Assembly (NCBI GenBank): GCA_024763135.1
Contig: JANTGD010000001.1
Coordinates: 1 to 54,002, forward strand
Direction of reading: 5' to 3'
Length of the DNA stretch: 54,002 nt
Source: Thiotrichales bacterium
GTDB taxonomy: Bacteria > Pseudomonadota > Gammaproteobacteria > UWMA-0217
A model generated the notes under the pieces. That model was given only the letters and a program-made list of their open reading frames with translations, was not told the DNA's origin and did no database searches. Of this stretch, positions 6,706 through 39,891 are shown one piece after another; positions within the stretch are counted from its first letter, which is position 1, and the number at the start of each line of letters is the position of its first letter. The translations under genes and the position numbers were made by a program.

Positions 6706-7647
6706 TTACTTATATCCACCAACCTTTACCAAAAGAATTGCAAGCAAGCTACATGCCACCATCCAAAGAAGCTCCCAAAGCAAAACTCTCGACACTGGAT
6801 AACCTGCCAGAACCAAGCGTTGGTACCAATGCTCGCGATGTGCCTCCCAAACTTTTTGCCTACGGAAAAGTCGTGATAGCAAGGTGTAAGTTGCATCCAA
6901 CCAAAATGGCATAAAGATTAGTACGGGCACCCACCAATGGAATAGACTGCGCTCAATTCCTAGTAGTGAAGCCGAAATCATCATGTACCCGAGAAATGTG
7001 GAACCACTGTCCCCCATAAAGATCTTTGCAGGTGGCAGATTCCAAACTAAAAAGCCAAGAGTAGCAGCGGCAATCGAGGCGACACCCAAGGCATAGACGG
7101 AGTCGCCCAGCTGCCAACCGATCACCGCTAGCGCACCAAAACCGACCACCCCCATCGTGCCGGCCAGCCCATCCATACCATCCATGAAGTTGTACAGATT
7201 GATTGACCATATGCCGAGGAATACTAATCCCATAGTTAATGCTATCCCTAACAGAGTATCCATGGATGCATATCCCATCCGCATAGCACCCAACAACAGG
7301 ATCGTTACAACACAATGCATCAACAATCGTATTCTTGCAGGCACATGTCCAAGGTAATCGTCGAGTATCGATACACCAAACAACAGCAGAACACCTGCTA
7401 AGATAAGAAAGTCATATTCTGCAAATATTGGAGTTGGATAAATGAGCTTTGAGCTAAGCACCCATCCTAAAATTGTCCATAAAACAATGGATACCCCGCC
7501 CGTCCTTGGCACCGCCTCGGTATGTAAAGAACGATCATTGGGTATATCAAGGGCGGTATTTACTCCAGAGTGTCTTACTAAGAAAAATACACTTACAAGA
7601 CTACCTGAAAAAATACCCATGAGTATCGCTAATAATTTAGTACTCAT
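6706..7647 (-). CDS. Polyprenyl-phosphate sugar-1-phosphate transferase, glycosyltransferase family 4 (WecA/WbpL/MraY-like initiating enzyme)
   Basis: 313 aa, polytopic membrane protein with the family motif NLYNFMDGMDGLAG and the conserved FMGDSGS block. Confidence 0.85.
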   Translation of the reverse strand: MSTKLLAILMGIFSGSLVSVFFLVRHSGVNTALDIPNDRSLHTEAVPRTGGVSIVLWTILGWVLSSKLIYPTPIFAEYDFLILAGVLLLFGVSILDDYLGHVPARIRLLMHCVVTILLLGAMRMGYASMDTLLGIALTMGLVFLGIWSINLYNFMDGMDGLAGTMGVVGFGALAVIGWQLGDSVYALGVASIAAATLGFLVWNLPPAKIFMGDSGSTFLGYMMISASLLGIERSLFHWWVPVLIFMPFWLDATYTLLSRLFRRQKVWEAHREHWYQRLVLAGYPVSRVLLWELLWMVACSLLAILLVKVGGYK

Positions 7648-8531
7648 CCGAACCCCCCGATGACTATTATCCCTCGCAACTCATAAGACAACATCAATAC
7701 TACGCCCTGCGAATTGCTTTACATCATCCATTTCATTCTAACTTATCAATAAGTTACTGAGCATTATTTGCCAGATTCTTCAGCCAGTAAAGCTGCTGCC
7801 TCGTGAATTATTCTAATTCAAGCAACTTCCAAATGACTTTTTGGAGACAGGCAGCGTTGAATTGTAACTTCTTTATTATTCTTTCTTGTTGATACAAACA
7901 ACATTTCACACACATTGATATCCGATTATACTTAATAGCTATTTAGATTCAGACACTTAGAAACCTCAACCAAGGATAATAAGTACCTATACAATCTATC
8001 CAAATTGTATCCTCGAGTTATATGGCATCGTTTAGAATGCGAACTCACTTCACCTTTAGGTTTACACTAATCTTCGGATTTTGCTACGTTGATAGCATAT
8101 TGAGAAAGTAACGGCATGGATTTTGATTTCCGAAACTGTTACTCTACCAGTTGGTCTTCATTTTCAACTGAAGGAATATACAACATGAAAGAACATGGAT
8201 TGCTTGCTATCGATCAGTACTACTGTTGCTAACGATACACGATTAAAGCTAATACGCTTGTTTTTAATTACTCGTTGCCTTTTAAGAGTACAAGTATAAA
8301 GTTTTATGTTGTAATTACCCGCTATGCGTAACAATGATTACCTTTCGTCCAAAAAACTTCTTAAAACACTCTTTAGTTCATCCAACAATATTGGCTGTCC
8401 TCGTTCCATGTCGCATTTCTTCGATTTTCCATTGCGACCGTTCCAGCATATCGTGCCTCTTGATTAGACATCAATATTATTTTTAAGCACAAGACCGATA
8501 ACAATCTTGTCAATAAAACAGTTATCAAGAA

Positions 8532-9410
8532 TTGCACGCACCCTTTAATATACCCATACACTATGAGAAGAGAGCCGTGAGACATCAAATCTATCGCGAA
8601 CTCACGCCGCAAGCGATAATCAATACATTCATAATCAATATATCATTGATTAAACAGCTCGCCTGGCGAGATATCATAGGAAGATATCAAGGCTCCATTC
8701 TTGGGCTCATATGGTCATTCATAAACCCTCTAATCATGTTAATGGTTTACACTTTTGTTTTTTCTGTGGTATTTAAAGCACGTTGGGGCAGCAGTCAATC
8801 AAGTGATAGTAAAGCCGAATTTGCATTAATTTTATTTTCTGGACTAATTATACACACCTTTTTTGCTGAGGTACTTAATCGCTCCCCTTCCCTTATTGTT
8901 AGCAATTCTAATTACGTTAAAAAGGTCGTTTTCCCTCTTGAAACACTACCTTACGTAAATATTACCTCTGCTTTGTTCCATGCATGTGTAAGCATCGCAG
9001 TTCTTTTACTCGGTTTAGTACTAATTAACGGAACAATACATTGGACAATAGCGTTTCTTCCAATTATATTTACACCACTCATTTTATTGTCTCTAGGCAT
9101 CTCATGGATTTTAGCATCTCTCGGCGTTTACCTTAGAGACATGAACCAAATTACCAGCATAATAACCACCATCCTTTTATTTATATCTCCGGTATTTTTT
9201 CCACTTTCTTCTATACCAGAGCAATATCAAGCAATTGTTATAGCTAACCCACTTACTTTTATAATTGAACAGACGAGAGAAGTTATCATCTGGGGTAACC
9301 TTCCGAATTTCACTGGTTTACTTACATACTTTATATTTGCATTTATTTTTGCTCAACTCGGAATTATATTTTTTCAAAAAACGAGAAATGGTTTCGCCGA
9401 TGTGTTATAA
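8532..9410 (+). CDS. wzm: ABC-2 type polysaccharide export permease (Wzm)
   Basis: Multi-pass membrane protein with the N-terminal LAWRDIIGRYQGSILGLIWSF block typical of Wzm/TagG permeases, directly upstream of the ATPase. The track start at 8532 is TTG. The in-frame GTG at 8577 is an equally plausible start. Confidence 0.85.
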   Translation: MHAPFNIPIHYEKRAVRHQIYRELTPQAIINTFIINISLIKQLAWRDIIGRYQGSILGLIWSFINPLIMLMVYTFVFSVVFKARWGSSQSSDSKAEFALILFSGLIIHTFFAEVLNRSPSLIVSNSNYVKKVVFPLETLPYVNITSALFHACVSIAVLLLGLVLINGTIHWTIAFLPIIFTPLILLSLGISWILASLGVYLRDMNQITSIITTILLFISPVFFPLSSIPEQYQAIVIANPLTFIIEQTREVIIWGNLPNFTGLLTYFIFAFIFAQLGIIFFQKTRNGFADVL

Positions 9411-9446
9411 AGCCCTCTTATTTATTTGAGTAATGTTTAAATAATA

Positions 9447-10745
9447 ATGACTGCGATATCCGTAAATAAAGTCGCCAAATGTTATCCCATATATGATCGT
9501 CCGAGTGACCGACTGAAACAGATGCTTTTCAAAAACAAAAAGCGGTTTTTCAGAGAGTTTTGGGCATTAAATAATGTAAATTTCTCAGTATCGAAAGGTG
9601 AGACAGTAGGGATAATTGGTAAAAATGGTTCTGGTAAATCCACTCTACTACAAATTATCTGCAAAATACTTACCCCCACCAAGGGAGATGTCAAAGTCGA
9701 TGGCAAAGTGGCCGCTCTTCTAGAACTCGGCGCTGGCTTTAATCCTGAATTTTCTGGGATAGAAAATATTTTTATGGCGGCCTCAATATACGGCCTCACT
9801 AAAGAAGAAACATCCAGACGCATGGATTCAATAATCTCTTTTGCTGACATCGGGGAACACCTAGACCAGCCAGTCAAAACCTATTCAAGCGGCATGTATG
9901 TACGGCTCGCATTCGCGGTGATTGCTCATGTAGATGCCGACATTCTGGTAATTGACGAAGCGCTAGCCGTAGGTGATGCTATATTCACGCAAAAATGTAT
10001 GCGGTTTATTAGGGAATTCAAAAAAACGGGCACTTTATTATTTGTCAGTCACGATATGAACTCAGTATTAAGTTTATGTGATAAAGCAATTTGGCTGGAT
10101 AATGGTACTATTGTTCAACAAGGCTCCTCCAAACAGGTAGCTGAAGACTATCTTCAGTCTACCCTACAATCCGTATACGGAAACGATGCTCAACTTGAGC
10201 GAGTAAATAATAAAGAAGTCCCTGAACCATCCAGTGCTGACGTTAAACTCGATTATGATTCTCAACTCGAATTCCAAGAAAACCTCGTCGATGCGAAGGG
10301 TTGGTCATCAGGTGCAGGAAAAATAATATCAATTGAGATGAAATCTTTATCTAATGAGGTTAATAACCTATACAAAGGTGGTGAGAAGGTAAACCTGATC
10401 ATTCGCGCAGAAATTTACCAAGACTTCGACAGACCCATTATAGGTTTCCTCGTGCGTGATAGGCTAGGGCAAGACCTTTTCGGAGAAAACACACTTGGTT
10501 TTACAAAGCTTAGTCCAACACCTGCTAAAGCAGGTGATACTTTAGAGTCTTGCTTTACATTCACTTTACCCATGTTGCCTAATGGCGAATACGTTGTAAT
10601 GGCCTCTCTAGCAAATGGTGATCTGTATAATAACATCCAACATCATTGGTTGCATGACGCATTTGTATTGACAGTTTCGTCCTCTAAAGTCCGTTGGGGG
10701 CTTGTCGGCATTCCTTTTGAACAAGTTTCGCTAAATAAAATCTAA
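9447..10745 (+). CDS. wzt: Polysaccharide export ABC ATPase (Wzt) with extended C-terminal domain
   Basis: 432 aa. Walker A GKNGSGKST, signature YSSGMYVRLAFA, Walker B ILVIDEALAVGD. About 180 further residues follow the NBD, at the position of the Wzt carbohydrate-binding domain. Confidence 0.88.
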   Translation: MTAISVNKVAKCYPIYDRPSDRLKQMLFKNKKRFFREFWALNNVNFSVSKGETVGIIGKNGSGKSTLLQIICKILTPTKGDVKVDGKVAALLELGAGFNPEFSGIENIFMAASIYGLTKEETSRRMDSIISFADIGEHLDQPVKTYSSGMYVRLAFAVIAHVDADILVIDEALAVGDAIFTQKCMRFIREFKKTGTLLFVSHDMNSVLSLCDKAIWLDNGTIVQQGSSKQVAEDYLQSTLQSVYGNDAQLERVNNKEVPEPSSADVKLDYDSQLEFQENLVDAKGWSSGAGKIISIEMKSLSNEVNNLYKGGEKVNLIIRAEIYQDFDRPIIGFLVRDRLGQDLFGENTLGFTKLSPTPAKAGDTLESCFTFTLPMLPNGEYVVMASLANGDLYNNIQHHWLHDAFVLTVSSSKVRWGLVGIPFEQVSLNKI

Positions 10746-13690
10746 TGGATAATTTAAAAGATATATATAGGTCTCATACCGGAAAAGTCTCAGATAAATG
10801 GGAGCTGTATCTCGATGAGTATACACGTCTTCTCAATAAATTCCGTAACGAACCAATATCTATTTTAGAAATTGGCATTCAAAATGGAGGCTCGTTAGAG
10901 ATTTGGTCAAAATATTTTGCTGCAGCAAAATCGATACTAGGATGTGATATTGACTCAAATTGTGAGAATCTTCGTTATGACGATGAGCGTATAAATGTCA
11001 TAGTTGGAGACGTGAACGATGACTCCACAAAATCCAGAATCATCGAACTAAATAATAGATTTGACATTATAATTGATGACGGGTCGCATACTTCTGCAGA
11101 CATCATAGAAACTTTTGTAAACTACTATCCTTTTCTAAACGAAGGCGGACTTTATATTGTTGAGGACATACATTGCAGCTACTGGAAAGAATTTGGTGGC
11201 GGTCTTTACTCACCATTTACCGCTATTGAGTTTTTTAAAAAGCTTACCGATGTTATTAACCATGAACACTGGGGAATAGAAAGTAGCACAGAGCAATTTC
11301 TATCCCGGATAATTGGAGTTTACGACATACACCCAGAGCATTTCATTAAAACGTTAAATAGCATACATTCAATTAGCTTTGCAAACTCCTTAGTCACAAT
11401 AAATAAATTAACTACCCCATATCATGGATTAGGGAATAGAGTAATATCTGGTAACTCTGCCAGTGTCAACAATGAAGTCATATCTCTAGGAGGGTGCACA
11501 TCAGTAGCCCCGCCTCAAACTGAAAATAAATGGTCAACTCTTCAGTGCTCCCCTAGCGAATCTTTTGAATCTCTCCAACAAGAGCTCACAGAGCGTACAA
11601 ATCTAAATTTATCGCTACAAAATAAAATAGATGATTTACACGAGAAACTCATTTTAAGCGAGGCCAAAAACTCCGACCTCAATAAGAATTTAGCTGAACT
11701 ATCAAAGAATCTGGAGTCTTCCACCGATAAACTAGCCAAACAAAAACTGAAGGCCGCTGAATATAAAGAAAATATAGATAAATTATCATTTAATTATCAG
11801 TCAATGCTGAATTCAACATCCTGGAAAATTACTAAACCGATAAGAAATCTATCTGTCTATCTTTCAAAATTCAAACATTTAGTACACGGTATCAATCAAA
11901 AACAATTAGTAAAAAGGTTTCTCACGCTACCTAAAGTATATTCGTTATCAAACCGATTCCTGAGTGGCTTTCTCCATAAAAGCACTTCAGTAACGGAGGA
12001 TACTGACAATAAATCGTATCATTCTTGGTATGAATCGAGGTATAACTCAGACAAAGTATCGCGATGGTCTGAAGATACTAAATCGCTTGAGTTTAGCCCA
12101 CTTATTTCAATCATCATGCCGGTGCATAGGCCATGTATACAACATTTCAGTTGTGCTGTTGATTCTGTTCTCGCTCAATCATATAGTAATTGGGAGCTTT
12201 GTATCGTAGATGATGCTTCAAATCTAGCGAATCTCACCAAGATTATTGCAGATTACGCTTCCAACGACACTAGAATTAAATTCACAGAAAATCTGAACAA
12301 TCAACACATATCACTTTCTTCTAACGAAGCACTTGAGTTGGCATCAGGTGATTATTTTATTTTGCTTGATCACGATGACGTGCTCCCAAATTTTGCTCTC
12401 TCTGTTCTTGCTTTAAGTATCGCAAAACATCCTGATGCAGAGTTTTTCTATAGTGATGAAGACCGAATCACAGAAAGCAACACCCTTGTTAAGCCATTTT
12501 TTAAGCCTGATTGGTCTCCACATCTTTTATATTCTCAAAACTATATCACACATCTCACGTGTTTTAAAAAGTCTTTATATGAAAAGTGCGGAGGATTTCG
12601 GAAAGGTTTAGAGGGTGCGCAAGACTATGATTTATTTTTACGTTATTGTTATGCTGCAAATGAAATAATACATATTCCAGAGATTCTATACCATTGGCGT
12701 GAACATGGCTTATCAACTTCACTGAACTCAGATTCAAAACCATATGCACACGACGCCGGCCTATCCGCTCTAAGAGATCATCTACATAATAAATATCCCA
12801 AACAGTTCAAAGGAGACATCGAGAGTAATTTTCTTTTTACATATTCACCAAGATTTTTATTAAGCCCCTCCTCGCTTGTTTCCATCATCATTCCCACAAA
12901 AGACAAAATTGACTTATTAAAAAAGTGCATTGATAGCATACTAAGCAAATCACTATGGAAAAATTTCGAAATACTGGTTATCAATAACAACTCCACTGAA
13001 GACAAGAGCTTTGCATATTTTGAAAAAATTTCTCAACACCCTAATATTAGGGTTATCGATGCGCCTATTCCTTTCAACTGGTCTAAAGTTAATAATATAG
13101 GAGCTAGTCATGCTCAGGGCGACGTTTTTGTTTTTTTAAATAATGATATTGAAATCATTACACCTGATTGGATAAATATTCTTGCAAGCTACAGCTTACT
13201 TCCAGACGTCGGCACCGTAGGACCTCTGTTATTATATGAAAACGATACAATTCAACACGCGGGAGCAATTGTGGGAATGAATGGATGGGCAGATCATGTC
13301 TTCAAATCATTACCCCCTAAACATCACGTAGGCCCATTTGTATCTCCGCTCATATCTCGTAATGTACTCGCAGTAACCGGTGCATGTACGAGTATTGAAG
13401 CTGCAAAATTCAAAGAACTCGGCGGATATGATGAAGAATTTATTATTTGTGGGAGTGATATTGAGCTAGGCGTTAGAAGTTCTAAGAAGGGTTATTACAA
13501 CGTTTATACACCAGATGTGAGATTATATCATTTTGAATCCATGACTAGAGATAACTACGTTCCCGAAGTAGATTTCGTAAACTCAGATATAAAATATGCA
13601 CCTTACCGCACAGATCAAACTGACCCTTTCTTTAACCCTAATCTAGATATTTTCAATACAACCCCGAACATCTGCGCCAATGACAAATAG
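10745..13690 (+). CDS. Multidomain glycan polymerase/terminator candidate: SAM-methyltransferase, coiled coil and two GT2 glycosyltransferase domains (WsaE-like architecture)
   Basis: 981 aa. The N-terminus has a class I methyltransferase fold signature (ILEIGIQNGGSLEIW ... IIIDDGSH ... GGLYIVEDI). Residues about 275-350 are heptad-rich (LQQELTERTNLNLSLQNKIDDLHEKLILSEAKNSDLNKNLAELSKNLESS) followed by STSWKITKPIR. There are two GT2 cores (ISIIMPVHRP...CIVDDAS...LLDHDD and VSIIIPTKDK...LVINNNS...FLNNDIE). Confidence 0.75.
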   Translation: MDNLKDIYRSHTGKVSDKWELYLDEYTRLLNKFRNEPISILEIGIQNGGSLEIWSKYFAAAKSILGCDIDSNCENLRYDDERINVIVGDVNDDSTKSRIIELNNRFDIIIDDGSHTSADIIETFVNYYPFLNEGGLYIVEDIHCSYWKEFGGGLYSPFTAIEFFKKLTDVINHEHWGIESSTEQFLSRIIGVYDIHPEHFIKTLNSIHSISFANSLVTINKLTTPYHGLGNRVISGNSASVNNEVISLGGCTSVAPPQTENKWSTLQCSPSESFESLQQELTERTNLNLSLQNKIDDLHEKLILSEAKNSDLNKNLAELSKNLESSTDKLAKQKLKAAEYKENIDKLSFNYQSMLNSTSWKITKPIRNLSVYLSKFKHLVHGINQKQLVKRFLTLPKVYSLSNRFLSGFLHKSTSVTEDTDNKSYHSWYESRYNSDKVSRWSEDTKSLEFSPLISIIMPVHRPCIQHFSCAVDSVLAQSYSNWELCIVDDASNLANLTKIIADYASNDTRIKFTENLNNQHISLSSNEALELASGDYFILLDHDDVLPNFALSVLALSIAKHPDAEFFYSDEDRITESNTLVKPFFKPDWSPHLLYSQNYITHLTCFKKSLYEKCGGFRKGLEGAQDYDLFLRYCYAANEIIHIPEILYHWREHGLSTSLNSDSKPYAHDAGLSALRDHLHNKYPKQFKGDIESNFLFTYSPRFLLSPSSLVSIIIPTKDKIDLLKKCIDSILSKSLWKNFEILVINNNSTEDKSFAYFEKISQHPNIRVIDAPIPFNWSKVNNIGASHAQGDVFVFLNNDIEIITPDWINILASYSLLPDVGTVGPLLLYENDTIQHAGAIVGMNGWADHVFKSLPPKHHVGPFVSPLISRNVLAVTGACTSIEAAKFKELGGYDEEFIICGSDIELGVRSSKKGYYNVYTPDVRLYHFESMTRDNYVPEVDFVNSDIKYAPYRTDQTDPFFNPNLDIFNTTPNICANDK

Positions 13691-14975
13691 TAAGATTTTA
13701 AGATTTCTTTTACGATCTAGAACAATCCTCCATTTTGCCAAAGAACTCTGCAGTGCAAGCAGAAACGAAGATACAATAAGGATCTCTATTCCAGAAACCA
13801 CCCCTTTTTCTTTATCCTCATCAAACATAAAGAAAATTCGATTAAACTTAGTAGTGCCTGGCATATCAGAAAGATATATTTTTGGCGGAATCGCCACAGC
13901 TTTGAAACTGTTTGAATCGGTTGCTGATGATAACTACGATCTACGAATTATTGTCTCTGACGAACAAGTAGCAATACCCGCTGAAGGAAAATTTTATTCT
14001 AATTGGGAGCCTGCGCCTTTAAACCATCCCGATAAAACTGGAAACATAATTACCGTAGCTGGAGATAGATATAACAAATCCTTGCCTATCAGAGAAAATG
14101 ATTTTTTTATAGCGACGGCTTGGTGGACTGCATATTCTGTCTTGGATGTTATAAAATGGCAGAAAAATAACTTTAGCGTTAATGATAGAAAATTTACTTA
14201 TTTAATTCAAGATTTTGAGCCTAATTTCTATCCGTGGTCTACTCGCTATGCAAAAGCACTGTCGACGTACCAACATTCCAATTCAACTATTGCCGTATTC
14301 AACACTTCGTTGCTAAAGGAATACTTTATAGATCAAGGCTTACATTTTAAAGATAGCTTTCATTTCGAGCCTCAGTTAAATGAGCGTTTAAAGAAATACA
14401 TAAATAATATCGATTCAACGTCAAAAAAAAAGAAATTAATCATATATGGCCGACCTTCCACTGAACGTAATGCTTTTGAGCTTATCATTGAAGTATTGAT
14501 GCTTTGGTCGTCACGTTTAGAAGGATCACAACATTGGGAGCTTATTTCACTAGGAGAACATCATGAAGACATATCATTAAATAACGGCGTCATACTTCGC
14601 TCAAGGGGAAAAGTCTCTTTGGACGAATATGCACAGCATTTAGTGGAATGTTCAGTTGGACTTTCTTTGATGGTTTCTCCACACCCTAGCTATCCGCCTC
14701 TAGAAATAGCTGCGTTTGGCGGGATTTCAGTCACTAACAACTTTTCTAATAAAGACCTTTCTACCTTACATCCAAATATCCTAAGCACACCTTCATTTGA
14801 TGCTGAATCCATTTCAGATTTATTAATTAACGCATGCAGTTCTGCTTTAAAAAAATCATTTAACTTAAAAAACAATCAGCATGATGGGTTTTTCTTCCTT
14901 AAAAACGAGGATCAGTTTAATTTTTCTAGTATTTTACGAAAAAAACTTATCACGCAACGTTCAAATAATATTTAG
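13680..14975 (+). CDS. Glycosyltransferase, WsaF-like (putative rhamnosyltransferase family)
   Basis: 431 aa. The N-terminal block IRLNLVVPGISERYIFGGIATALKLFE resembles the WsaF-family signature. Overlaps the upstream gene by 11 nt. Confidence 0.6.
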   Translation: MTNSKILRFLLRSRTILHFAKELCSASRNEDTIRISIPETTPFSLSSSNIKKIRLNLVVPGISERYIFGGIATALKLFESVADDNYDLRIIVSDEQVAIPAEGKFYSNWEPAPLNHPDKTGNIITVAGDRYNKSLPIRENDFFIATAWWTAYSVLDVIKWQKNNFSVNDRKFTYLIQDFEPNFYPWSTRYAKALSTYQHSNSTIAVFNTSLLKEYFIDQGLHFKDSFHFEPQLNERLKKYINNIDSTSKKKKLIIYGRPSTERNAFELIIEVLMLWSSRLEGSQHWELISLGEHHEDISLNNGVILRSRGKVSLDEYAQHLVECSVGLSLMVSPHPSYPPLEIAAFGGISVTNNFSNKDLSTLHPNILSTPSFDAESISDLLINACSSALKKSFNLKNNQHDGFFFLKNEDQFNFSSILRKKLITQRSNNI

Positions 14976-14993
14976 ATGTTTTCTTTATAGCGC

Positions 14994-15911
14994 ATGTCCC
15001 GTAACTCAACAGCAACAAAAGTATGTGCTAGCATCGTAATTTACAAACAATGCCCAGAAACACTTAGCACGTTAATTAATTCTTTGCTGCATCAGGCAGA
15101 GCAAATTATAATTGTGGACAATAATGAATCGCCATCTTTATCTCCGACGGATGGCCGTATTGTATATTTTCCTAACAATGAAAACTTGGGGATCTCTAGG
15201 GGACATAACATATCATTTCAATGGGCAGAAAAAAACAATTTTACTCACCTTTTAACTTTCGATCAAGACAGCTCCATAGACACCACACTGATTGAGAAAC
15301 TATTACAAGCTGAACACACGTTAATCGATCAAGGGCATAATGTAGCTTGTGTAGGACCAAGTTTTATAGATCCTAGAAATCAATTTACTGCACCATTTAT
15401 CACCCTATCTGGCTGGAAAATAATTAAAAAAAGCTGCGACAATGAAAACACCAACTTCATATCGGTGGATTATCTGATAACGTCCGGATCATTATTCAAT
15501 TTAAAAGCCTCAAAGGAAATAGGTTACTTTGATGAGCTTTTATTTATTGATTACGTTGATATCGAGTGGGGTCTACGTGCAAAGTCTATGGGATACAAGC
15601 TGTTTGGAATCTGCGACGCAACCATGCAACACACGATAGGTGATCCACCACTTAAATTAAGATTCATTAATAAGAAAATTCCACTTCACAGCCCATTGAG
15701 ACATTATTATCATTTTCGTAACGCGATTTTGATTTATAAACGACCTTATATCATCACGAAGTGGATAGTCAATGATTCAATAAGACTTGCTATAAAATAT
15801 TTTGTATATTCTTTTTTTGCCCCAAAAGCTAAAGCGCACTTTACCATGATCAATAAAGGTATTCTTCATGGCGTTATTGGTATTTCAGGAAAATATACTA
15901 CTAAAAAATAG
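14994..15911 (+). CDS. Glycosyltransferase family 2 (rhamnosyltransferase-like)
   Basis: 305 aa. ASIVIYKQ...IIIVDNNES...LTFDQDS...FIDYVDIEWGLR pattern typical of WbbL/RfbQ-type GT2 enzymes. Confidence 0.7.
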   Translation: MSRNSTATKVCASIVIYKQCPETLSTLINSLLHQAEQIIIVDNNESPSLSPTDGRIVYFPNNENLGISRGHNISFQWAEKNNFTHLLTFDQDSSIDTTLIEKLLQAEHTLIDQGHNVACVGPSFIDPRNQFTAPFITLSGWKIIKKSCDNENTNFISVDYLITSGSLFNLKASKEIGYFDELLFIDYVDIEWGLRAKSMGYKLFGICDATMQHTIGDPPLKLRFINKKIPLHSPLRHYYHFRNAILIYKRPYIITKWIVNDSIRLAIKYFVYSFFAPKAKAHFTMINKGILHGVIGISGKYTTKK

Positions 15912-15925
15912 GTCAGGCACACCAA

Positions 15926-16801
15926 GTGGCTATAGAGTACAAACATCACGATGCTGGGATTACATTAGTTACTATTAATTTTAATGCTGGCCTGTTACTG
16001 AAGGATTGCATCTCTAGCGCCCTATCGTCAACTTTAGTGCGTTACGTTTATGTCATCGACAATGCCTCAACTGATAATAGTCTTTCATCACTGGAGGCTG
16101 AAATCAGCGATACTCGGCTCAAAGTATTCAGGAATACCTCGAATGTCGGTTTTGGAAGCGCAAATAATCAAGCGCTCAAACTGATAGATACAGAGTATAT
16201 ACTCCTGCTTAACCCTGACTGCATCGTATCTAAAGAAGCAATTGACCAGCTCGTGTTAGCTGCTCAAGCAGACATTAATTCTGGGCTTTTGGGCCCGCTT
16301 ATACTAAATGAAGACGGAAGCGAACAACGGGGTTGTCGTCGACGCGAACCTAAACCTGAGCTGCTTCTAAAAACGTTATTGAGCGCAAAGAGAGGCGGAA
16401 TCAACCAAGTAGGAGCGCCCCTGTCCAAGGAACCGCAAACCGTAGACGCTATTTCTGGCGCTTGTATGCTGGTTCGTCGCGATGCGCTGTTTGATGTTGG
16501 CCTTTTCGACGAAGATTACTTTTTACATTTCGAAGATTTGGACTGGTGCAAACGATTTTGGCTTAAAGGTTGGAAAGTTCTTTTCGTTCCTGCCTCAACA
16601 GTCGTACACGCCCAGGGCGCTTGCAGCCGCAGAAGCCGTTTAAGTGTTGAAAGGCATAAAATCAACGGCCTCAAGCGCTATTATAAAAAATACTATGACA
16701 AAGAATACTCGTCAATTAATCTTAATATGATCTATTTTTTAGTCTATCTTCGCTATCTTATCCTTGCTCCTGTATGGTTATGGAAAAACAGAAAACAGTA
16801 A
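15926..16801 (+). CDS. Glycosyltransferase family 2
   Basis: 291 aa with a GTG start. ITLVTINFNAG...VIDNASTDNS...LLLNPDCIV...ISGACMLVRRD...FEDLDWCKR GT2 hallmark blocks. Confidence 0.75.
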   Translation: MAIEYKHHDAGITLVTINFNAGLLLKDCISSALSSTLVRYVYVIDNASTDNSLSSLEAEISDTRLKVFRNTSNVGFGSANNQALKLIDTEYILLLNPDCIVSKEAIDQLVLAAQADINSGLLGPLILNEDGSEQRGCRRREPKPELLLKTLLSAKRGGINQVGAPLSKEPQTVDAISGACMLVRRDALFDVGLFDEDYFLHFEDLDWCKRFWLKGWKVLFVPASTVVHAQGACSRRSRLSVERHKINGLKRYYKKYYDKEYSSINLNMIYFLVYLRYLILAPVWLWKNRKQ

Positions 16802-17676
16802 CGCGCATCTCTGTTACAGGTGCAACGAGTATTGTAGGCCACTTCCTTTTACCTTTGCTCAGGAACTCCCCAACACCTATTCGTGCCATTAGCCGTTCTT
16901 CTGATCCTTTTATTACACCTAAGGAGCAGGTCTCGCTTCAAACATGGCATAGAGTCGACCTGAGCAAAGAAGTGGTTGAGTTTTTAGAACAAGAAACTCT
17001 TATTCATTTGGCTCCAATTTGGTTGTTGCCTGATCTTTTAGATCGCGCTCCTATCAAACCGATGCGTGTTATCGCCTTTAGTTCCACCAGCATGTTCACT
17101 AAAAAAGATTCACCCTCCAAGAGGGATCAACTTCTCGTAAAAAAATTGCAACATGCGGAGCATAACTCAATTCAACGATGCGAGGCACTTGGCATTCCAT
17201 GGACTATTCTCCGCCCTACAATGATTTACGGTGGTCGCCTCGATAAAAATATCAGTAGAATAGCTTCTTTTATTCAGCGTTATGGCTTCTTTTTGTTGCC
17301 TCGCCAAAGCGCTGGATTACGAATGCCTGTCCATGCGGGGGATCTTGCTACCGCGACGCTACGGATTCTGAATAATCCATGTACCGCTAACAAAGAGTAT
17401 AATTTGGGTGGAGGGGAATCCCTGCCCTACTATGAGCTGGTCACCAGAATATTCTCAACATTAGACAAAAAACCTAGAATCATCTCAGTTCCTTTTTCTT
17501 ATATAGCGACGATGCTACACATCGCGAACGCGTTTCATTTAATAGCGGATGCTGATACTGAGATACTCAGACGCATGAGCGAAGATCTGGTTTTTGATCA
17601 CACGCTGGCAGTTGTCGATTTCGACTACTCACCAAGACCCTTTCGCCCTAACAGGGATGATCTCCGGATTGACTAA
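16774..17676 (+). CDS. NAD(P)-dependent epimerase/dehydratase-family (SDR) protein, specific function unknown
   Basis: 300 aa. N-terminal glycine-rich ISVTGATSIVGHFL motif and extended-SDR-like length. Overlaps the preceding GT2 gene by 28 nt, or 22 nt from the ATG at 16780. Confidence 0.55.
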   Translation: MVMEKQKTVTRISVTGATSIVGHFLLPLLRNSPTPIRAISRSSDPFITPKEQVSLQTWHRVDLSKEVVEFLEQETLIHLAPIWLLPDLLDRAPIKPMRVIAFSSTSMFTKKDSPSKRDQLLVKKLQHAEHNSIQRCEALGIPWTILRPTMIYGGRLDKNISRIASFIQRYGFFLLPRQSAGLRMPVHAGDLATATLRILNNPCTANKEYNLGGGESLPYYELVTRIFSTLDKKPRIISVPFSYIATMLHIANAFHLIADADTEILRRMSEDLVFDHTLAVVDFDYSPRPFRPNRDDLRID

Positions 17677-20450: not shown

Positions 20451-21569
20451 CTAAGATGCTTTACGATCCTTATATTGTTGGTCGATCCAGTCCTTATAGC
20501 TGCCATCCATGACAGCACGCCACCACGCTTCATTGTCCAAATACCACTGGAGGGTTTTTTGGATTCCTGTCTCGAACGTTTCAGCTGGTTGATAGCCAAG
20601 TTCTTGCGTGGTTTTAGTGGCGTCGATGGCATAACGCTGGTCATGGCCAGGCCGGTCCTTGACATAAGTAATCAAGCTCCGGGCTTGTGCTCCATTCGCA
20701 GCAGGTGCACTGGGGAATCGCGCTTTGAGCTCGGCATCCTGGGTAAAGTGTCGATCGAGTAAATCACAAATTAAATTGACAATATCAATATTCGTCCATT
20801 CATTATGACCACCAATATTGTAAGTTTCCCCCAATTTTCCCTGCTTGATAATCAAATCGATACCACGAGCGTGATCATCAACATAGAGCCAATCGCGAAT
20901 ATTTTTTCCATCCCCATAAATGGGGAGTGAGCGGCCATGCAAAATATTGATCAGCACAAGGGGAATGAGTTTTTCCGGAAACTGATACGGCCCGTAGTTA
21001 TTCGAACAATTACTGGTCGTCACGTCCAATCCATAGGTATGGTGATAGGCACGCACTAAATGATCCGAAGCGGCTTTGCTCGCGGAATAAGGGGAGTTGG
21101 GAGCGTAGGGCGTGGTTTCTTTAAAGGCCGGATCCTCAGGACCCAGTGAACCATAGACCTCATCAGTCGAAACGTGATGAAAACGGTGGGGCACGCGCCC
21201 CTGCGGACCTTCCAACCACACCTCGCGAGCAGCCTTCAACATGCTGTGTGTACCGATGATATTGGTATCGATAAACGCATCCGGGCCGGAAATGGAACGA
21301 TCCACATGGCTTTCTGCAGCAAAATGCACCACCGTGTCGATAGACTCATCACGCAATAACTGTTCAATCAAAGATTGATCACGAATATCACCATGCACAA
21401 ACTTAAACTGCGGATTTTTTTCTGCTTCGACCAAACTATTGTGATTACCTGCGTAGGTGAGCGCATCCAATCCAAGCACTTTATCTGCTGGATGCTGATC
21501 CAGCCAGTAGTAAACGAAATTGACCCCAATAAAACCGGCCGCACCGGTCACCAATACATTAGACATCAT
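20451..21569 (-). CDS. rmlB: dTDP-glucose 4,6-dehydratase
   Basis: 372 aa. [21 protein letters not shown] and YSASKAASDHLVRAY motifs. Confidence 0.93.
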   Translation of the reverse strand: MMSNVLVTGAAGFIGVNFVYYWLDQHPADKVLGLDALTYAGNHNSLVEAEKNPQFKFVHGDIRDQSLIEQLLRDESIDTVVHFAAESHVDRSISGPDAFIDTNIIGTHSMLKAAREVWLEGPQGRVPHRFHHVSTDEVYGSLGPEDPAFKETTPYAPNSPYSASKAASDHLVRAYHHTYGLDVTTSNCSNNYGPYQFPEKLIPLVLINILHGRSLPIYGDGKNIRDWLYVDDHARGIDLIIKQGKLGETYNIGGHNEWTNIDIVNLICDLLDRHFTQDAELKARFPSAPAANGAQARSLITYVKDRPGHDQRYAIDATKTTQELGYQPAETFETGIQKTLQWYLDNEAWWRAVMDGSYKDWIDQQYKDRKAS

Positions 21570-22428
21570 TCAGCTCCTTTAGCATTTTTTGCAGCGCAAC
21601 ACGCCAGTGATCTCCCTGATAACCCAGTGCTTGCCTCAATGATTGTTTACACAGTACAGAAAAGGCAGGCCGGACTGCTGCCGTAGGATAGTCCGCAGTG
21701 GCGATGGGCTGGACAGTCACCGGTGTCGAGACTAACCCAAGTTCCTGACCTATTTCCCAGATCGCCATCGCAAAGTCGTACCAACTCGCTACCCCGGCAT
21801 CGGACCAATGATAGATACCGGATAGTTCCTGCCTGATCGACTGACAGATCACTTGCGCAAGCCCAGCCGCCCAAGTCGGACTCCCTACCTGATCTTCGAC
21901 GACCCCGATCTGCTCCCGTTCCTGCATCAGGCGCAGCATTGTTTTAACAAAATTATGTCCATGCACGGAATAGACCCAGGCAGTCCTGATGATCAATGCC
22001 TGCTCACCAAGTTCGCCCAATACGAATTGTTCACCTTCCAACTTGGTTTGCCCATAGACGCACTGAGGATGTGCCGGATCTTGTGGGTCATAGGGTCGGT
22101 TCTTCTGGCCATCGAAGATAAAATCGGTAGAAAGGTGCAACAGACGCGCACCCTGCTCGACTGCAGCTCGCGCAATATTTCCTGCACCCAATGCGTTGAT
22201 CGCGTGCGCCGCCTCGGGATGCGCTTCGGCACCATCCACGGCGGTGTACGCTGCAGAATTAACAATCCAGTGCGGCTTGAGCGTCGCTACTGCGTCGTTG
22301 ACTGCCGATGCATCTGTCACATCCAAGGCTTGCCGGGAGTAGGCATGAATCTCGAAATCAGGTGGTGCGCAGCGTTGCAGCTCCCAGCCCACTTGGCCTC
22401 CCGCCCCGGTCAATAGAATACGGGTCAT
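21559..22428 (-). CDS. rmlD: dTDP-4-dehydrorhamnose reductase
   Basis: 289 aa. ILLTGAGGQVGWEL start and RmlD-like length and blocks (STDFIFDG, YGQTKLEGE). Confidence 0.9.
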   Translation of the reverse strand: MTRILLTGAGGQVGWELQRCAPPDFEIHAYSRQALDVTDASAVNDAVATLKPHWIVNSAAYTAVDGAEAHPEAAHAINALGAGNIARAAVEQGARLLHLSTDFIFDGQKNRPYDPQDPAHPQCVYGQTKLEGEQFVLGELGEQALIIRTAWVYSVHGHNFVKTMLRLMQEREQIGVVEDQVGSPTWAAGLAQVICQSIRQELSGIYHWSDAGVASWYDFAMAIWEIGQELGLVSTPVTVQPIATADYPTAAVRPAFSVLCKQSLRQALGYQGDHWRVALQKMLKELNDV

Positions 22429-22437
22429 GAATCGTCC

Positions 22438-23313
22438 TTATTTCAGCAAATCCATTAAGTATCGACCATATCCGCTCTTCTTTAAAGGCTCAGCAATCTT
22501 CATCAATGCGGTATCATCAATAAATCCCTGGCGCCAGGCGATTTCTTCGGGGCAGGCGATCTTTAAGCCCTGACGCTGTTCGATTACGCGTATAAAATGG
22601 CCGGCATCGAGCAGTGAACCCATCGTGCCGGTATCCAGCCACGCCGTGCCACGCGTCAAACGCTCGACCTTCAGATCTCCACGCGCCAGATAGACGTTGT
22701 TTACATCGGTAATTTCCAGCTCCCCTCGATGGGAAGGCTGGATAGATTTGGCGATCTCCACCACATCATTGTCGTAAAAGTACAAGCCCGTCACGGCATA
22801 ATTCGACTTAGGCTGTGCAGGCTTTTCCTCGATACTTGTGGCACGACCGGTGGCATCGAAATCCACCACACCATAACGCTCCGGATCATTCACCCAGTAC
22901 CCAAACACGGTCGCGCCGCGAGTCTGCCCGGCAATCTCCTGAAGGCGTACAGAAAGCTGCTCTGAATAAAAAATATTGTCGCCGAGTATGAGCGTTGCAT
23001 TGTCGGAACCCACAAAGTCTTCCCCGATGATAAACGCCTGGGCCAGGCCATCGGGCGACGGTTGCACGGCGAACTGAATATTGAGGCCCCATTGACTTCC
23101 ATCATCAAGCAATGTCTGAAAAGCGTCCAGATCTCTCGGGGTGGTAATAATCAGTACATCCTGGATCCCCGCCAGCATCAATGTGGATAGCGGGTAGTAG
23201 ATCATGGGCTTATCGTAAACCGGCATCAACTGTTTACTGACCGAGATAGTCAGCGGATGGAGCCGCGTGCCGGAGCCTCCGGCGAGAATGATACCCTTGC
23301 GCTTCTTCGTCAT
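22438..23313 (-). CDS. rmlA: Glucose-1-phosphate thymidylyltransferase
   Basis: 291 aa. [16 protein letters not shown] signature and RmlA-like sequence throughout ([18 protein letters not shown]). Confidence 0.94.
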
Positions 23314-23452
23314 GGTTCTCTCAAGAATGGCTGGTTAAAGTCGCTCCCTGCGTCAAACCTGACACTTTCCATGTGCCCAATCCAATCAGACAGATGTCAA
23401 CTGCTCTGTAACCTATGCAGGGCAAGCTAGCAACTCGTGGGAAATACTATTC

Positions 23453-23884
23453 TCACCAATGCACCCTGCTTTTGCCAGCGACTCGCCGGCCTAAATGCTC
23501 AAACTGTGAAGGGAATATCGGGAACGAGTGGAGCGTTCGATACTGCACCACCATAGATTGGTAAAATACCCATGCCACTTGTAAAGCCAGCAGATCATTC
23601 TTTTCGACAATGTCGGACACAACCCAACGAGCCGGCGGGCTTGTTCCCCAATTCACTCGCCCCGCAAACACGGCGCGTCAACTTGCTCAATTGGCCAGGG
23701 ATGGCTGACCGACATAAGCGCGCGGTGTCCGTGGATGCAGGCGGGCGACCGGGCGCCCTTTCTTTTGGTTCATTTTCTTTGAGCGAGCAAAGAAAATGCA
23801 CTCGCACATGGCAACAACCATTTGAAAAGCATCTTGGCGGTAACGGCGCGAAATCACTCTCCAAGCTGCGCTTATAGCACACAT
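23453..23884 (-). pseudogene. Candidate decayed rmlC (dTDP-4-dehydrorhamnose 3,5-epimerase) relic
   Basis: One minus-strand frame is interrupted by in-frame TGA codons at 23687-23689 and 23678-23680. It reads ..ECIFFARS..KKGRPVARLHPR..RAVFAGRVNWGTSPPARWVVSDIVEKN..QYRT. This echoes RmlC blocks as I recall them (ERGFFFES; KGVLRGLHFQ; VFDVAVD..SPTFGxWVGxxLSxxN; LYKT) with nearly the same spacing. The GFAHGF block is not recognisable. Judged by eye only. Confidence 0.4.
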
Positions 23885-33115: not shown

Positions 33116-34006
33116 TTAATACATAACGAATGCGATGCCCAGCAATCCAGCCAATACTGGCCACTTCCACATTAGGCGTAGCATATCTTCAGTGCGATAG
33201 CGGGGGAATGTAAAAGCAATCATCATGGGAATAGCAACAACCGCAAAAATCTTGATTAGAAAATCTAACCAATGGGTGCCCCCACCTAGAAACAAGGTCG
33301 TATACAGCACACCCGCGGTATACAGTTGGAAACACTGCATGACAAAAAGCCCGCCCATGTACTTACCGCCCATTTCCACCATTGGGCCGGTGGCAATTTC
33401 AGCGGGCGCCACATAGATCTCGAACGGCTGTTTACCCATCATGCCTTGGAGTGCAAACAGTCCAGCCAATGCCAACAGTGGCATTTCAAAGGCCCCCCAG
33501 CCTTGGGCCTGTTGCAGGCTGATCATCTCTGACAAATCCGTGGTGCCGTAATGCCAGGCCACACCAAAAATCACGATGACAAAAGGGATGTCATAGGCGA
33601 GCATGGCAGTCAAAGCACGAGAAATTCCGATCGATCCATTGGGATTAGCGCATTGCCCCACACCCAATGCCAACCCCAGCGAAGGAATCATAAGAAAATA
33701 AGTCAGCGTAATAATACCACCCTTGTCGCTCAGACCATCCATGCCCGGCACGGGTAGTAAGCTTTCCGCCGCCAAGTACCCACCCACGGCCATAATAATA
33801 CCGATGTCGTGAAGCAACCCATGCGAAACTTGCGTAGTCTTGCTGTAGAATTTGATAATGTCGATTAGAGGTTGAAAAAACGGCGGACCAACACGCCGTT
33901 GTAATTTCGCCGCAATTTTGCGCAGCATCAACACCATAAAAAGTCCGATCACAAAAGCCACAATCGGCATTAAGATAATATCCGCGATCCGCTTTCCAAT
34001 CTCCAT
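33116..34006 (-). CDS. NuoH / MbhM-like membrane subunit
   Basis: Polytopic, with a NuoH-like RRVGPPFFQPLIDIIKF block. Start placed at the internal ATG at 34006 (MEIGKR), sharing 1 nt with the upstream stop (TAATG). Confidence 0.78.
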   Translation of the reverse strand: MEIGKRIADIILMPIVAFVIGLFMVLMLRKIAAKLQRRVGPPFFQPLIDIIKFYSKTTQVSHGLLHDIGIIMAVGGYLAAESLLPVPGMDGLSDKGGIITLTYFLMIPSLGLALGVGQCANPNGSIGISRALTAMLAYDIPFVIVIFGVAWHYGTTDLSEMISLQQAQGWGAFEMPLLALAGLFALQGMMGKQPFEIYVAPAEIATGPMVEMGGKYMGGLFVMQCFQLYTAGVLYTTLFLGGGTHWLDFLIKIFAVVAIPMMIAFTFPRYRTEDMLRLMWKWPVLAGLLGIAFVMY

Positions 34007-35874
34007 TAGCTCACCATCCAAAGCACAATCACGGCCATCGCCAGCATGGGTAAGGCGGGTTGCATTAAACGATAGAAGGTCGCTGACCACTGCGCCAAAA
34101 AGCTCGCCAGTGACGCCACTACGGATTCAAACCACAGAAAACTGCCTCGATACCAGTGCCCGATTCTATGCATCAAGCCCGCGTAGAAATGGTCGGAATA
34201 GTGGTAACGCACATCGGCACTGAGGAAATGTCCACCGGCATAATTATCAAGTTGATGGACCGGCTCTGAACGTCCCGTTGCATAGAACAGCAAAGCACTG
34301 ACCCCGAAACCGGCAAATAACACCAGGACAAGCATTATCATGTCCAACCCCCCATGTGCATCAGCCACACCACCGAGTGTGTGTGGTAGCACCGGCAAGC
34401 CTACTGCTGCCTGCACTGCAGCTACCCAATCCAACACGATCCCAGGCATAAACCCAGTAAGAAAAATGATCAATGCAAGTACCATCATGGGAATGACCAT
34501 ACTCCAGGGGGCCTCTTGCACGGGTTCATGCTCCAGACGCAGCTGCCCAAGAAACGTATTATGAATGAGCTTGTATACCGATAGAATCGTTCCAAGTGTA
34601 CCGATGACCGAGGCCACAAATAATAACGGCATGCCCTCGCTCAGCAACGAACGATACACCATCCATTTAGATACAAAACCATTCATCGGGGGGATACCCG
34701 CTAAACCAATAATGCCCACAAGCATCGCCACAAAAGTCAGGGGCATGCGGGTAAACAAGCCACCAAGTTTATTGAGATCGGCAGTCCCGGTGCGATACAC
34801 CACAGCAAATACCGCCAATAGCAGTACTGCTTGGTTGGTGGCGTAATTAAAGATATGCAGAATACCGCCCGCAGAACCCAATGCGCTTGCCGATAGAATC
34901 CCCATCAGCATGTAGCCACCTTGACCAATGCCGTGCCACGCCAACAACCTGCGCGCATCATTCTGCTTCAGTGCCGTATAGGTGGGCAAGATAATGGTAA
35001 AAGCCGCTATCCACATCAATACATCGCGCAGACTCAGGAATGTTAAAGGGATGTGAACTTCAATCAGCCTGATCAAACCAATCAACTGAACCCAGACCAG
35101 CATCATTCCATAGAGTCCCATTCGGGAAGAAATAGCGCCTAGAAAAGCCATACCTGGCCCGGGCGTTTCTGCATATGCGCCCGCCTGCCAAAGGTGAAAG
35201 GGTAAAATCCCCATTTTTACGGCGAAACCCGCCCCAAAGAGCACGGTAAGCAGAGTAATCAGTCCTACCGACCACTGATCGACCGCGGCCATAAAATCCG
35301 CATAATTCAATGATCCAGTCAAATGGAACACGATACCCAAGGCCGCCAGCATTGACATAGCACCGGCCGTGGCATAGGTGATATAGCGCAAAGACCATTT
35401 CAGAGCGGGACCAGCTGCTAACGCCATAAGTAGAAAGCTGGCCCAACTCACCAGTTCCCAGGCGATAAATAAGGATAAAAAGTCACCGCTAGCCAGCAAC
35501 AACAACATCGTAAACACGTTGAGCGCAAGTGCAAATTGAAGCCAACCAGGTGAGCGACCCGCTGCCCGATAGTGATCACTCCAGGCCCCAGTAGCATAGA
35601 CGCTGCTGACCAATCCAGCTCCTAGCGTAATTAAAGCGAAGTACCAGGACATTGCATCATAGCGCAAGACCAATGGTTGCCCGAACAAATCCCAGGCCAG
35701 CCCGGAAGTAACCGCCGGTGCACCGTAACCCAAAGGCGCCAACAAAAAGAGTACCAGAAGTTGTAGACCTAAACCCAACGAAGCAACATAACCTACCCAA
35801 CGCGTTCTGACTGTCGCCAAAGTAGCGATCAAGGTTCCTAATGCCGTTAACAATAGCGCGTCCAGTAGACTCAT
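34006..35874 (-). CDS. Antiporter-like subunit, MrpD/NuoL-family (second copy, MbxH-prime-like)
   Basis: 622 aa, about 16 or more predicted TM helices, proton-antiporter-M type blocks (FIAWELVSWASFLLM, WHGIGQGGYMLMG). Confidence 0.8.
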   Translation of the reverse strand: MSLLDALLLTALGTLIATLATVRTRWVGYVASLGLGLQLLVLFLLAPLGYGAPAVTSGLAWDLFGQPLVLRYDAMSWYFALITLGAGLVSSVYATGAWSDHYRAAGRSPGWLQFALALNVFTMLLLLASGDFLSLFIAWELVSWASFLLMALAAGPALKWSLRYITYATAGAMSMLAALGIVFHLTGSLNYADFMAAVDQWSVGLITLLTVLFGAGFAVKMGILPFHLWQAGAYAETPGPGMAFLGAISSRMGLYGMMLVWVQLIGLIRLIEVHIPLTFLSLRDVLMWIAAFTIILPTYTALKQNDARRLLAWHGIGQGGYMLMGILSASALGSAGGILHIFNYATNQAVLLLAVFAVVYRTGTADLNKLGGLFTRMPLTFVAMLVGIIGLAGIPPMNGFVSKWMVYRSLLSEGMPLLFVASVIGTLGTILSVYKLIHNTFLGQLRLEHEPVQEAPWSMVIPMMVLALIIFLTGFMPGIVLDWVAAVQAAVGLPVLPHTLGGVADAHGGLDMIMLVLVLFAGFGVSALLFYATGRSEPVHQLDNYAGGHFLSADVRYHYSDHFYAGLMHRIGHWYRGSFLWFESVVASLASFLAQWSATFYRLMQPALPMLAMAVIVLWMVS

Positions 35875-37334: not shown

Positions 37335-37798
37335 GAGCGCCCCTCCTCTGCCGCAACCGTCGGCCCGATCACCTCTCTGCCCGAAGGCTCTTCTTGGCTT
37401 AGGTCTCCGGTCACACCAGCTTGAGCATCAATGTCCGCCTGCATGGCAGCACGAATCTCGTCGATATCCAGACTGTGGTAGGCCTCCTTGACTCGAATCG
37501 CCAAGCTGAGCGCCAAGGCCTGAATACCTACTCCGATGACGATCGCTGTCAACACCATCGCCTGAGGGACAGGATCCACCATCTGCTCTGGCCAGACACC
37601 CGCCACCATAATCGGGGCATGCCCATGCAACCGATATCCAGCGATGACCAGCATTAAGTTTGCACCTGCCTCTGCAATTGCTAAAGACAGAATGATGCGA
37701 AAGAGGTGCCGGCTCCAGATAATACCGACTAAACCAATTGCAATCAGACCAATCGCACCGGTATAGAGAATCCATTGAAGGTCGAACACCATACTCAT
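37331..37798 (-). CDS. MrpC / NuoK-like subunit (MbhG-like) with hydrophilic C-terminal tail
   Basis: 155 aa. Three TM helices with an AIAEAGANLMLV core, then an acidic tail of about 50 aa. Confidence 0.72.
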   Translation of the reverse strand: MSMVFDLQWILYTGAIGLIAIGLVGIIWSRHLFRIILSLAIAEAGANLMLVIAGYRLHGHAPIMVAGVWPEQMVDPVPQAMVLTAIVIGVGIQALALSLAIRVKEAYHSLDIDEIRAAMQADIDAQAGVTGDLSQEEPSGREVIGPTVAAEEGRS

Positions 37799-39830: not shown

Positions 39831-39862
39831 AGCCAGGAACCCTTCGTCGATCTAGAGTCCCC

Positions 39863-39891
39863 AGAATAGGGAAACCTTACAACGATTGCAA
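39863..39891 (-). promoter_or_regulatory. Candidate sigma70-type promoter for the 13-gene operon
   Basis: On the minus strand, TTGCAA (39891-39886), a 17-nt spacer, then TATTCT (39868-39863). This lies about 30-60 nt upstream of the ATG at 39830, and a GAAGG Shine-Dalgarno candidate lies between. Pattern match only. Confidence 0.3.

Follow-up and report, generated by a model that had tools for sequence, protein, structure and literature searches.

Several described proteins combine bacterial polysaccharide assembly with control of the finished chain. WbdD of E. coli O9a/O8 and K. pneumoniae O3/O5 begins with a methyltransferase, continues as a coiled-coil ruler, and ends in an amphipathic region that binds the membrane, and it recruits a separate polymerase, WbdA; the O9a protein adds a kinase (PMC3482155; PMC11231755). 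WbbB of K. pneumoniae O12/Raoultella terrigena unites polymerization, termination, and length control by a coil in one chain, with the terminator N-terminal and the polymerase near the C-terminus, while ORF6 of K. pneumoniae O7, here ORF6(O7), carries a terminator at its N-terminus and, after a coiled coil, two C-terminal GT2 glycosyltransferases that depend on dTDP-rhamnose (dTDP-Rha) (PMC11231755). WsaE of G. stearothermophilus NRS 2004/3a joins an N-terminal O-methyltransferase to two rhamnosyltransferase domains and acts on a Gram-positive S-layer glycan (PMC2943079; PMC9415975). Considered here is a protein of 981 amino acids (aa), with the layout methyltransferase, coiled coil, GT2, GT2, that is encoded on the plus strand at positions 10745..13690 of a 54,002-nucleotide (nt) stretch of a Thiotrichales bacterium genome (contig JANTGD010000001.1 of assembly GCA_024763135.1; the whole stretch is called the window below). 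The fusion protein is likely a WsaE-like, three-activity assembly enzyme of a rhamnan pathway dependent on an ATP-binding cassette (ABC) transporter, the product of which is probably the O antigen of lipopolysaccharide (LPS).

Published examples of an all-in-one design are WbbB and ORF6(O7) (PMC11231755), with WsaE as the biochemical precedent. The activities that mark the WsaE type are α-1,2- and α-1,3-rhamnosyl transfer from dTDP-L-Rha and 2-O-methylation. WsaE, WbbB, and ORF6(O7) were compared with the fusion by their published descriptions, and the motif likeness to ORF6(O7) is taken from the text of the paper. The fusion resembles WsaE in domain order and also in gene order, as wsaE follows wzm-wzt with overlapping codons and precedes wsaF, just as in the window; the two differ in setting, the host here being Gram-negative and the product likely an LPS O antigen. 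The WsaE passages of two reviews contain no discussion of a ruler coil for WsaE. ORF6(O7) has a DXDD motif in its first GT2 module and NXD in its second, like the fusion, but its 1414-aa chain carries a terminator composed of a CgnL-like methyltransferase, a kinase, and a carbohydrate-binding module (CBM), which gives a methyl-phosphate cap, whereas the fusion has a MycE/SpnK-like methyltransferase with neither kinase nor CBM. The further component of the O7 polymerase is a separate ribofuranosyltransferase; in the window the partner is WsaF-like. WbbB shares the arrangement of the fusion but no domain family with it, its terminator being a GT99 β-Kdo transferase and its polymerase a GT102-GT103 pair. 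Compared with WbdD, the fusion carries its own polymerase and its methyltransferase belongs to a different fold family.

Domains and catalytic motifs of the fusion protein

The open reading frame (ORF) is tightly coupled to its neighbors: its ATG (10745-10747) and the wzt stop codon TAA (10743-10745) have the last A in common, and the next ATG downstream (13680, of a WsaF-like gene) lies inside its last 11 nt. An AlphaFold2 model of the single 981-aa chain, built on an alignment of 59 homologues, has a mean predicted local distance difference test (pLDDT) score of 87.1 and places, in order, a methyltransferase fold (residues 1-222), a poorly ordered linker, a long helix (270-355), a short helical stretch, a basic linker, and two GT-A domains. 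Pfam, NCBIfam, and the model agree on a single polypeptide in which two glycosyltransferase domains come after an N-terminal methyltransferase, and these features of the ORF lie far beyond chance expectation. The initial annotation, made from the DNA letters, had described the 981-aa frame, its overlap with the wzt stop, methyltransferase motifs in the N-terminal 220 or so residues that bind S-adenosylmethionine (SAM), and two GT2 cores from nt ~12100 and ~12880 (residues 452 and 712), and had called for domain models to be run; all of these descriptions are borne out, with matches to the Methyltransf_24, CmcI-like, and GT2 families.

The N-terminal domain (10745..11410, plus strand) is a metal-dependent sugar O-methyltransferase of the MycE/SpnK (TylF-like) type. 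Residues 36-144 match Methyltransf_24 (PF13578; 28.3 bits against a cut-off of 26.3) and the CmcI-like/rhamnosyl-O-methyltransferase family (PF04989). The nearest solved proteins by sequence are MycE (PDB 3ssm, E 6e-24) and 8ia9, and the same two are returned by Foldseek from the model; 8ia9 is titled SpnK of spinosyn biosynthesis. SpnK is the rhamnose 3'-O-methyltransferase. In the alignment with 3ssm, D112, H115, and D141 are matched with Asp275, His278, and Asp304 of MycE, and E140 with the Glu just before Asp304. These four residues and the SAM-binding motif E42-x-G44-x-Q46-N47-G48-G49-S50 are invariant across the 59 full-length homologues. Asp275/His278/Asp304 form the conserved active site of Mg-dependent sugar O-methyltransferases of the MycE/ThnM1 kind, a family that includes a rhamnose 2'-O-methyltransferase (PMC9275233). 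The fusion domain thus has both the glycine motif and the Asp/His/Asp constellation of this type, and because the SAM motif and the catalytic and metal-binding residues are intact and invariant, the site looks active; no degenerate or missing SAM-binding site was found.

MycE, SpnK, and ThnM1 have the SAM core, the constellation, and the fold in common with the fusion domain, but differ in substrate, acting on 6-deoxyhexoses of natural products, rhamnose among them, while the presumed acceptor of the fusion is a polysaccharide terminus (3ssm; 8ia9; PMC9275233). 6-Deoxyhexoses are what the nearest characterized relatives of the domain methylate. MycE also has an auxiliary N-terminal domain that the fusion lacks, the match beginning at MycE residue ~183 (chain residue 203). 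Neither Pfam nor NCBIfam matches a kinase domain of the sort present in O9a WbdD and ORF6(O7), and the model has no folded domain between methyltransferase and coil; the fusion is therefore predicted to be of a methyl-only subtype that places an O-methyl cap directly.

The C-terminal half carries a GT2 inverting core of GT-A fold with a DXD-type motif twice over. Module 1 (residues ~450-700; 12092..12844, plus strand) includes DDAS 489-492, DHDD 542-545 (the DXDD motif), and Q626-D627; module 2 (residues ~708-960; 12866..13624, plus strand) includes DNxS 747-750 and NND 799-801 (the NXD motif). Pfam finds Glycos_transf_2 (PF00535) in two stretches (E 9e-39), NCBIfam gives GT2-type matches at 451-640 and 711-931, and both modules are modeled at pLDDT above 90. 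DHDD 542-545 and NND 799-801 are conserved among homologues. Foldseek likens the tandem to that of the bifunctional polymerases K4CP and PmHS2 (E ~1e-20). Kelly et al. mutated DXDD and NXD in ORF6(O7)-C, where the modules add α-1,2- and α-1,3-linked rhamnose (PMC11231755). Elsewhere in the genome, a GT2 module with 24% identity to the fusion occurs within an open frame of 2738 aa (G000:C50:7398-8771, minus strand).

The coiled coil and its base across homologues

Between the methyltransferase and the glycosyltransferases lies an unbroken α-helix of 86 residues in one heptad register (residues 270-355, ~12 heptads; 11552..11809, plus strand). It is a single helix in the model (pLDDT 72-88), and at ~1.5 Å per residue its length is estimated at ~12.8 nm. 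The a and d positions are 72% hydrophobic (L/I/V/M/A/F/Y) compared with 34% for the whole segment, a value not reached in any of 20,000 shuffles (p < 5e-5). The heptad-rich segment of ~75 aa that had been read from the DNA (nt 11567-11795, residues 275-351) lies inside this helix, and formal analysis of coiled-coil propensity, on which that reading had been staked, gives a continuous register. The coiled coil is genuine. It extends from the terminator to the polymerase and putative membrane-proximal part of the chain, as in the known coiled-coil terminators, and the terminator occupies the end distal to the polymerase (methyltransferase in 1-222, GT2 after residue 450).

Coil length varies across homologues in a regular manner. 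The spacer was defined as the distance from an NxW at the methyltransferase end to the first Ser of an SxSW motif beyond the coil, and is 94 residues in the fusion. Among 72 homologues from the first homology search it ranges from 38 to 390 aa, and in 61 of them its length is congruent to 3 modulo 7 (P ~1e-39); counting each distinct length once, the congruence holds for 15 of 25 (P ~1e-6). In an independent sample, made up of cluster representatives at 50% identity, the count is 40 of 59 (P ~9e-20) and the range 38 to 405 aa. The length of the coil thus differs about ten-fold within the family while the register to both flanks is kept. Such variation in whole heptads between conserved anchors is the behavior expected of an adjustable spacer.

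The coil of several homologues contains tandem repeats of 7, 14, or 21 residues, and these heptad multiples suggest lengthening by repeat expansion. Among individual coils, that of P0073 has a 7-residue unit (ERDAQIT/ERDAQLA), that of P0130 a 14-residue unit present ~5 times, and that of P0104 a 21-residue unit; the repeat unit of P0113 is 18 residues, which is not a multiple of the heptad.

The coil ends at a conserved SxSWxxTxPxR motif, STSWKITKPIR in the fusion (residues 357-367; 11813..11845, plus strand), which the initial annotation had noticed after its heptad segment. S357, P365, and R367 are invariant in the 59 homologues, and conservation of S359, W360, and T363 is 90% or higher. The motif opens a basic, partly disordered amphipathic segment (residues 356-419; 11810..12001, plus strand) that is a putative membrane-association element. 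Its net charge is +9, every other segment of the fusion being acidic or neutral, and its hydrophobic moment is 0.51; the amphipathic moment of residues 361-379 ranks among the highest in the protein, and the model falls below pLDDT 50 at 374-419, a disordered basic linker. In homologues (n=48) the median charge of the matching 64 residues is +11, against -24 for whole proteins.

The N-terminal part of the fusion recurs as a module. A search with the N-terminal 372 residues (E<=1e-30, representatives at 50% identity) returned 906 representatives, in which the methyltransferase-coil module is nearly always N-terminal, in proteins of 315-2183 aa. Many of these proteins are standalone (~320-480 aa) and end 4-19 residues past the motif; in the five intact examples read, this short tail is basic-hydrophobic. 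The standalone members have exactly the layout of WbdD, a catalytic head followed by a coiled coil and an amphipathic C-terminus (PMC11231755), and by this analogy we infer that SxSWxxTxPxR and the tail form a membrane-proximal base of the module. Some members carry extra modules: an N-terminal sulfotransferase (PF13469), a further class-I methyltransferase at the C-terminus (PF08241 or PF13489), or DUF4214 (PF13946) between coil and GT2 (P0051, P0060, P0066, and P0067, from Mesorhizobium and metagenomes; P0083, P0099, and P0120; P0057, P0093, and P0098). These sequences hint at combined or alternative chain-end chemistries.

The locus and its relatives

The gene for the fusion stands directly after wzm-wzt and before wsaF. 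The ABC-2 permease gene wzm (8532..9410, plus strand; PF01061) encodes a protein 51-60% identical to the wzm products of related cassettes. The wzt product (9447..10745, plus strand) has a nucleotide-binding domain (PF00005) and a C-terminal carbohydrate-binding domain (nt 10296-10709; PF14524, E 1e-28) of the type that recognizes caps. It is nearest to Wzt of A. aeolicus (PDB 8dku, E 1e-82), with the carbohydrate-binding domain included in the alignment. The A. aeolicus domain binds a 3-O-methyl cap, on which a Trp stacks (PMC9445017); W401 of the locus Wzt aligns with this methyl-stacking Trp362. The whole genome contains only one Wzt_C domain, that of this protein.

As the initial annotation had proposed, the gene directly downstream (13680..14975, plus strand) is WsaF-like: it encodes a GT-B rhamnosyltransferase with the Pfam pair WsaF_N/WsaF_C (PF21374, PF22772), matching PDB 2x0d over residues 31-422 (E 4.9e-106). 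WsaF of G. stearothermophilus is a β-1,2-rhamnosyltransferase (PMC2943079). Two single-module GT2 genes follow on the plus strand, each a candidate adaptor glycosyltransferase. The first (14994..15911; PF00535) is rhamnosyltransferase-like, scoring 199.8 bits with TIGR01556 against a cut-off of 200.55; the second (15926..16801) matches PF00535, PF13641, and TIGR01556 (E 6e-16). An atypical short-chain dehydrogenase/reductase (SDR) of 300 aa (16774-17676, plus strand) with NDUFA9/NmrA-like matches (E 1e-8) and no matching NCBIfam model is the last gene of the AT-rich island. Past it, on the minus strand, come an epimerase gene, ugd, and the dTDP-sugar precursor genes rmlB (20451-21569), rmlD (21559-22428), and rmlA (22438-23313), with no rmlC after them; the three rml genes (20451..23313) score above the cut-offs of TIGR01181, TIGR01214, and TIGR01207, respectively. 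On the other side of wzm, a minus-strand gene (6706..7647) encodes a WecA-like polyprenyl-phosphate N-acetylhexosamine-1-phosphate transferase, the candidate initiating enzyme (PF00953; TIGR02380 E 1e-23, below its cut-off). Further along the window, over positions 34000-40000, the AT skew of the plus strand is strongly positive (0.24-0.28).

The GC content over wzm-wzt-fusion-wsaF-GT2-GT2 (8000-16000) is 0.36-0.37, against ~0.53 in the flanks, with ugd and the rml genes at 0.45-0.48. None of the 13 same-family genomes sampled has the full-length fusion; only GT2-GT2 proteins of 780-798 aa were found in them. The low GC of the cassette and the absence of the full fusion from these relatives mark it as a laterally acquired island. 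One of the relatives has a lone MycE-type methyltransferase domain in a frame of 275 aa, with 37% identity to residues 3-181 (G008:C14:13031-13558).

Genera with full-length homologues (37-47% identity) include Thiothrix, Pseudomonas, Sideroxydans, Acidithiobacillus, Paraburkholderia, and Marinobacter. Other genomes that have the wzm-wzt-fusion-wsaF cassette, usually with rml genes, include those of Thiothrix caldifontis and Pseudomonas atagonensis and two genome bins, one beta-proteobacterial and one of the Methylophagaceae. In Eubacterium the same cassette has a GT2-GT2 protein without methyltransferase, and an Oscillospiraceae cassette, used as a Firmicutes proxy for WsaE, has a protein of 1161 aa (L013:6441-9926) followed by wsaF; its GT2-GT2 part is alike (41% identity), but its methyltransferase is of the Methyltransf_11 type and not the MycE/SpnK type. 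The view that the combination of domains is unusual for a proteobacterial locus proved wrong, given the many full-length homologues, the recurring cassette, and the 906 module representatives. The family to which the fusion belongs is large, mostly proteobacterial, and, as far as the searched literature shows, uncharacterized.

A proposed scheme of assembly, termination, and chain length

In the proposed mechanism, the GT2 modules and the WsaF-like enzyme would lengthen a chain carried on undecaprenyl diphosphate at the inner membrane's cytoplasmic face, where the basic amphipathic segment opening with SxSWxxTxPxR would anchor the base of the protein. The 86-residue coil would keep the N-terminal Mg-dependent O-methyltransferase apart from the polymerase, so that the non-reducing rhamnose would be methylated only when the chain is long enough to reach it; the methyl cap would end elongation, and the carbohydrate-binding domain of Wzt would read the cap and license export. 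The repeat could, by analogy, have the structure ->2)-alpha-Rha-(1->3)-beta-Rha-(1->2)-alpha-Rha-(1->. For this scheme we infer, rather than observe, the donor sugar, the linkages, the position methylated, capping as opposed to internal methylation, membrane binding, the oligomeric state, and the ruler function. The earlier idea of polymerase, terminator, and ruler in one chain fits all of the computed evidence; its further suggestion, that a single enzyme builds the whole repeat, does not hold up so well. Because WsaF provides the β-1,2 linkage in the WsaE/WsaF precedent (PMC2943079), the fusion is probably not the sole builder.

Several observations weigh against the rhamnan assembly reading. 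WsaE methylated acceptors in vitro irrespective of chain length (PMC2943079), so a ruler effect would not be automatic. Tyr208 of MycE, which sits in a 7-residue loop without counterpart in the 3ssm alignment, has no equivalent in the fusion. The donor presents a further difficulty: rmlC (PF00908) has no match anywhere in the genome (432 contigs, 94% complete), yet occurs in all 13 same-family relatives at one to three copies each, so the cell may not produce dTDP-L-rhamnose, the presumed donor, or the locus may be in decay, and caution is needed in assuming that this organism makes a rhamnan. The SDR at 16774-17676 was considered as an epimerase-reductase of NRS/ER type replacing RmlC and was rejected, being of the atypical NDUFA9/NmrA-like kind. 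A relic of RmlC upstream of rmlA was likewise not accepted, as five RmlC queries gave only a 33-residue, non-significant match there (23376-23474, 33-36% identity, E 0.4-2) and the Pfam model gave none.

The missing rmlC is at the center of one alternative, in which the cassette is a recently acquired island, inactive or decaying, the ORFs being intact but the donor lost with rmlC and the protein idle. Besides the contrast with the 13 relatives, this account can draw on the RmlC match, weak but recurring just where rmlC ought to lie, and on the GC content and distribution that mark the cassette as foreign. It is nevertheless considered unlikely: every gene from wzm to the SDR is uninterrupted and tightly coupled, rmlA, rmlB, and rmlD score as full equivalogs, and in an assembly of 432 contigs that is 94% complete rmlC may be merely unassembled. 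Another alternative concerns what is methylated. MycE/SpnK-type enzymes are ordinary tailoring enzymes (PMC9275233), and as no sequence feature fixes the acceptor, the methyltransferase might decorate internal residues of the repeat as well, with the coil serving for oligomerization or scaffolding and measuring nothing. The cap-reading type of domain in the locus Wzt, with its methyl-stacking Trp retained, speaks against mere decoration, as does the ten-fold range of the spacer in whole heptads, which suits an adjustable spacer and which an oligomerization domain would not need; a decorating polymerase is accordingly judged improbable, to about the same degree as a decaying island.

Least probable of the three is a polymer that is not an LPS O antigen but a capsule-like or protein-linked glycan. 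The characterized WsaE/WsaF pair does glycosylate an S-layer protein (PMC2943079), and the cluster in the window is without a ligase gene. The host, however, appears to be gammaproteobacterial, a WecA-like initiating enzyme adjoins the cluster, and five genes of the Wzy_C family (WaaL type) lie elsewhere in the genome; no WsaB-type oligosaccharyltransferase turned up in the scan of the window, which was not a search aimed at one. A WsaE-like assembly enzyme for a methyl-capped rhamnan thus remains the favored interpretation of the locus.

The fusion would add a Gram-negative, methyl-only example with a MycE/SpnK-type terminator to the glycan proteins that polymerize, terminate, and measure, and the change of spacer length by whole heptads in two independent samples is comparative support for the ruler idea. 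A more far-reaching proposal, which is speculative and unlikely, is that the MycE-type methyltransferase, the heptad-quantized coil, and SxSWxxTxPxR with its basic tail form a portable terminator-ruler cassette, standalone or fused to many polymerases, the motif being an undescribed element, for docking or for membrane contact, that sets the ruler's zero point. If this were true, the natural series of spacers (38 to ~405 residues, in steps of 7) would predict the modal length of glycans in hundreds of cultured and uncultured bacteria. Among the cultured carriers, Thiothrix caldifontis DSM 21228 and Pseudomonas atagonensis would allow spacer and O-chain length to be compared, and what most deserves attention is the heptad quantization, together with the SxSWxxTxPxR base and its conservation.

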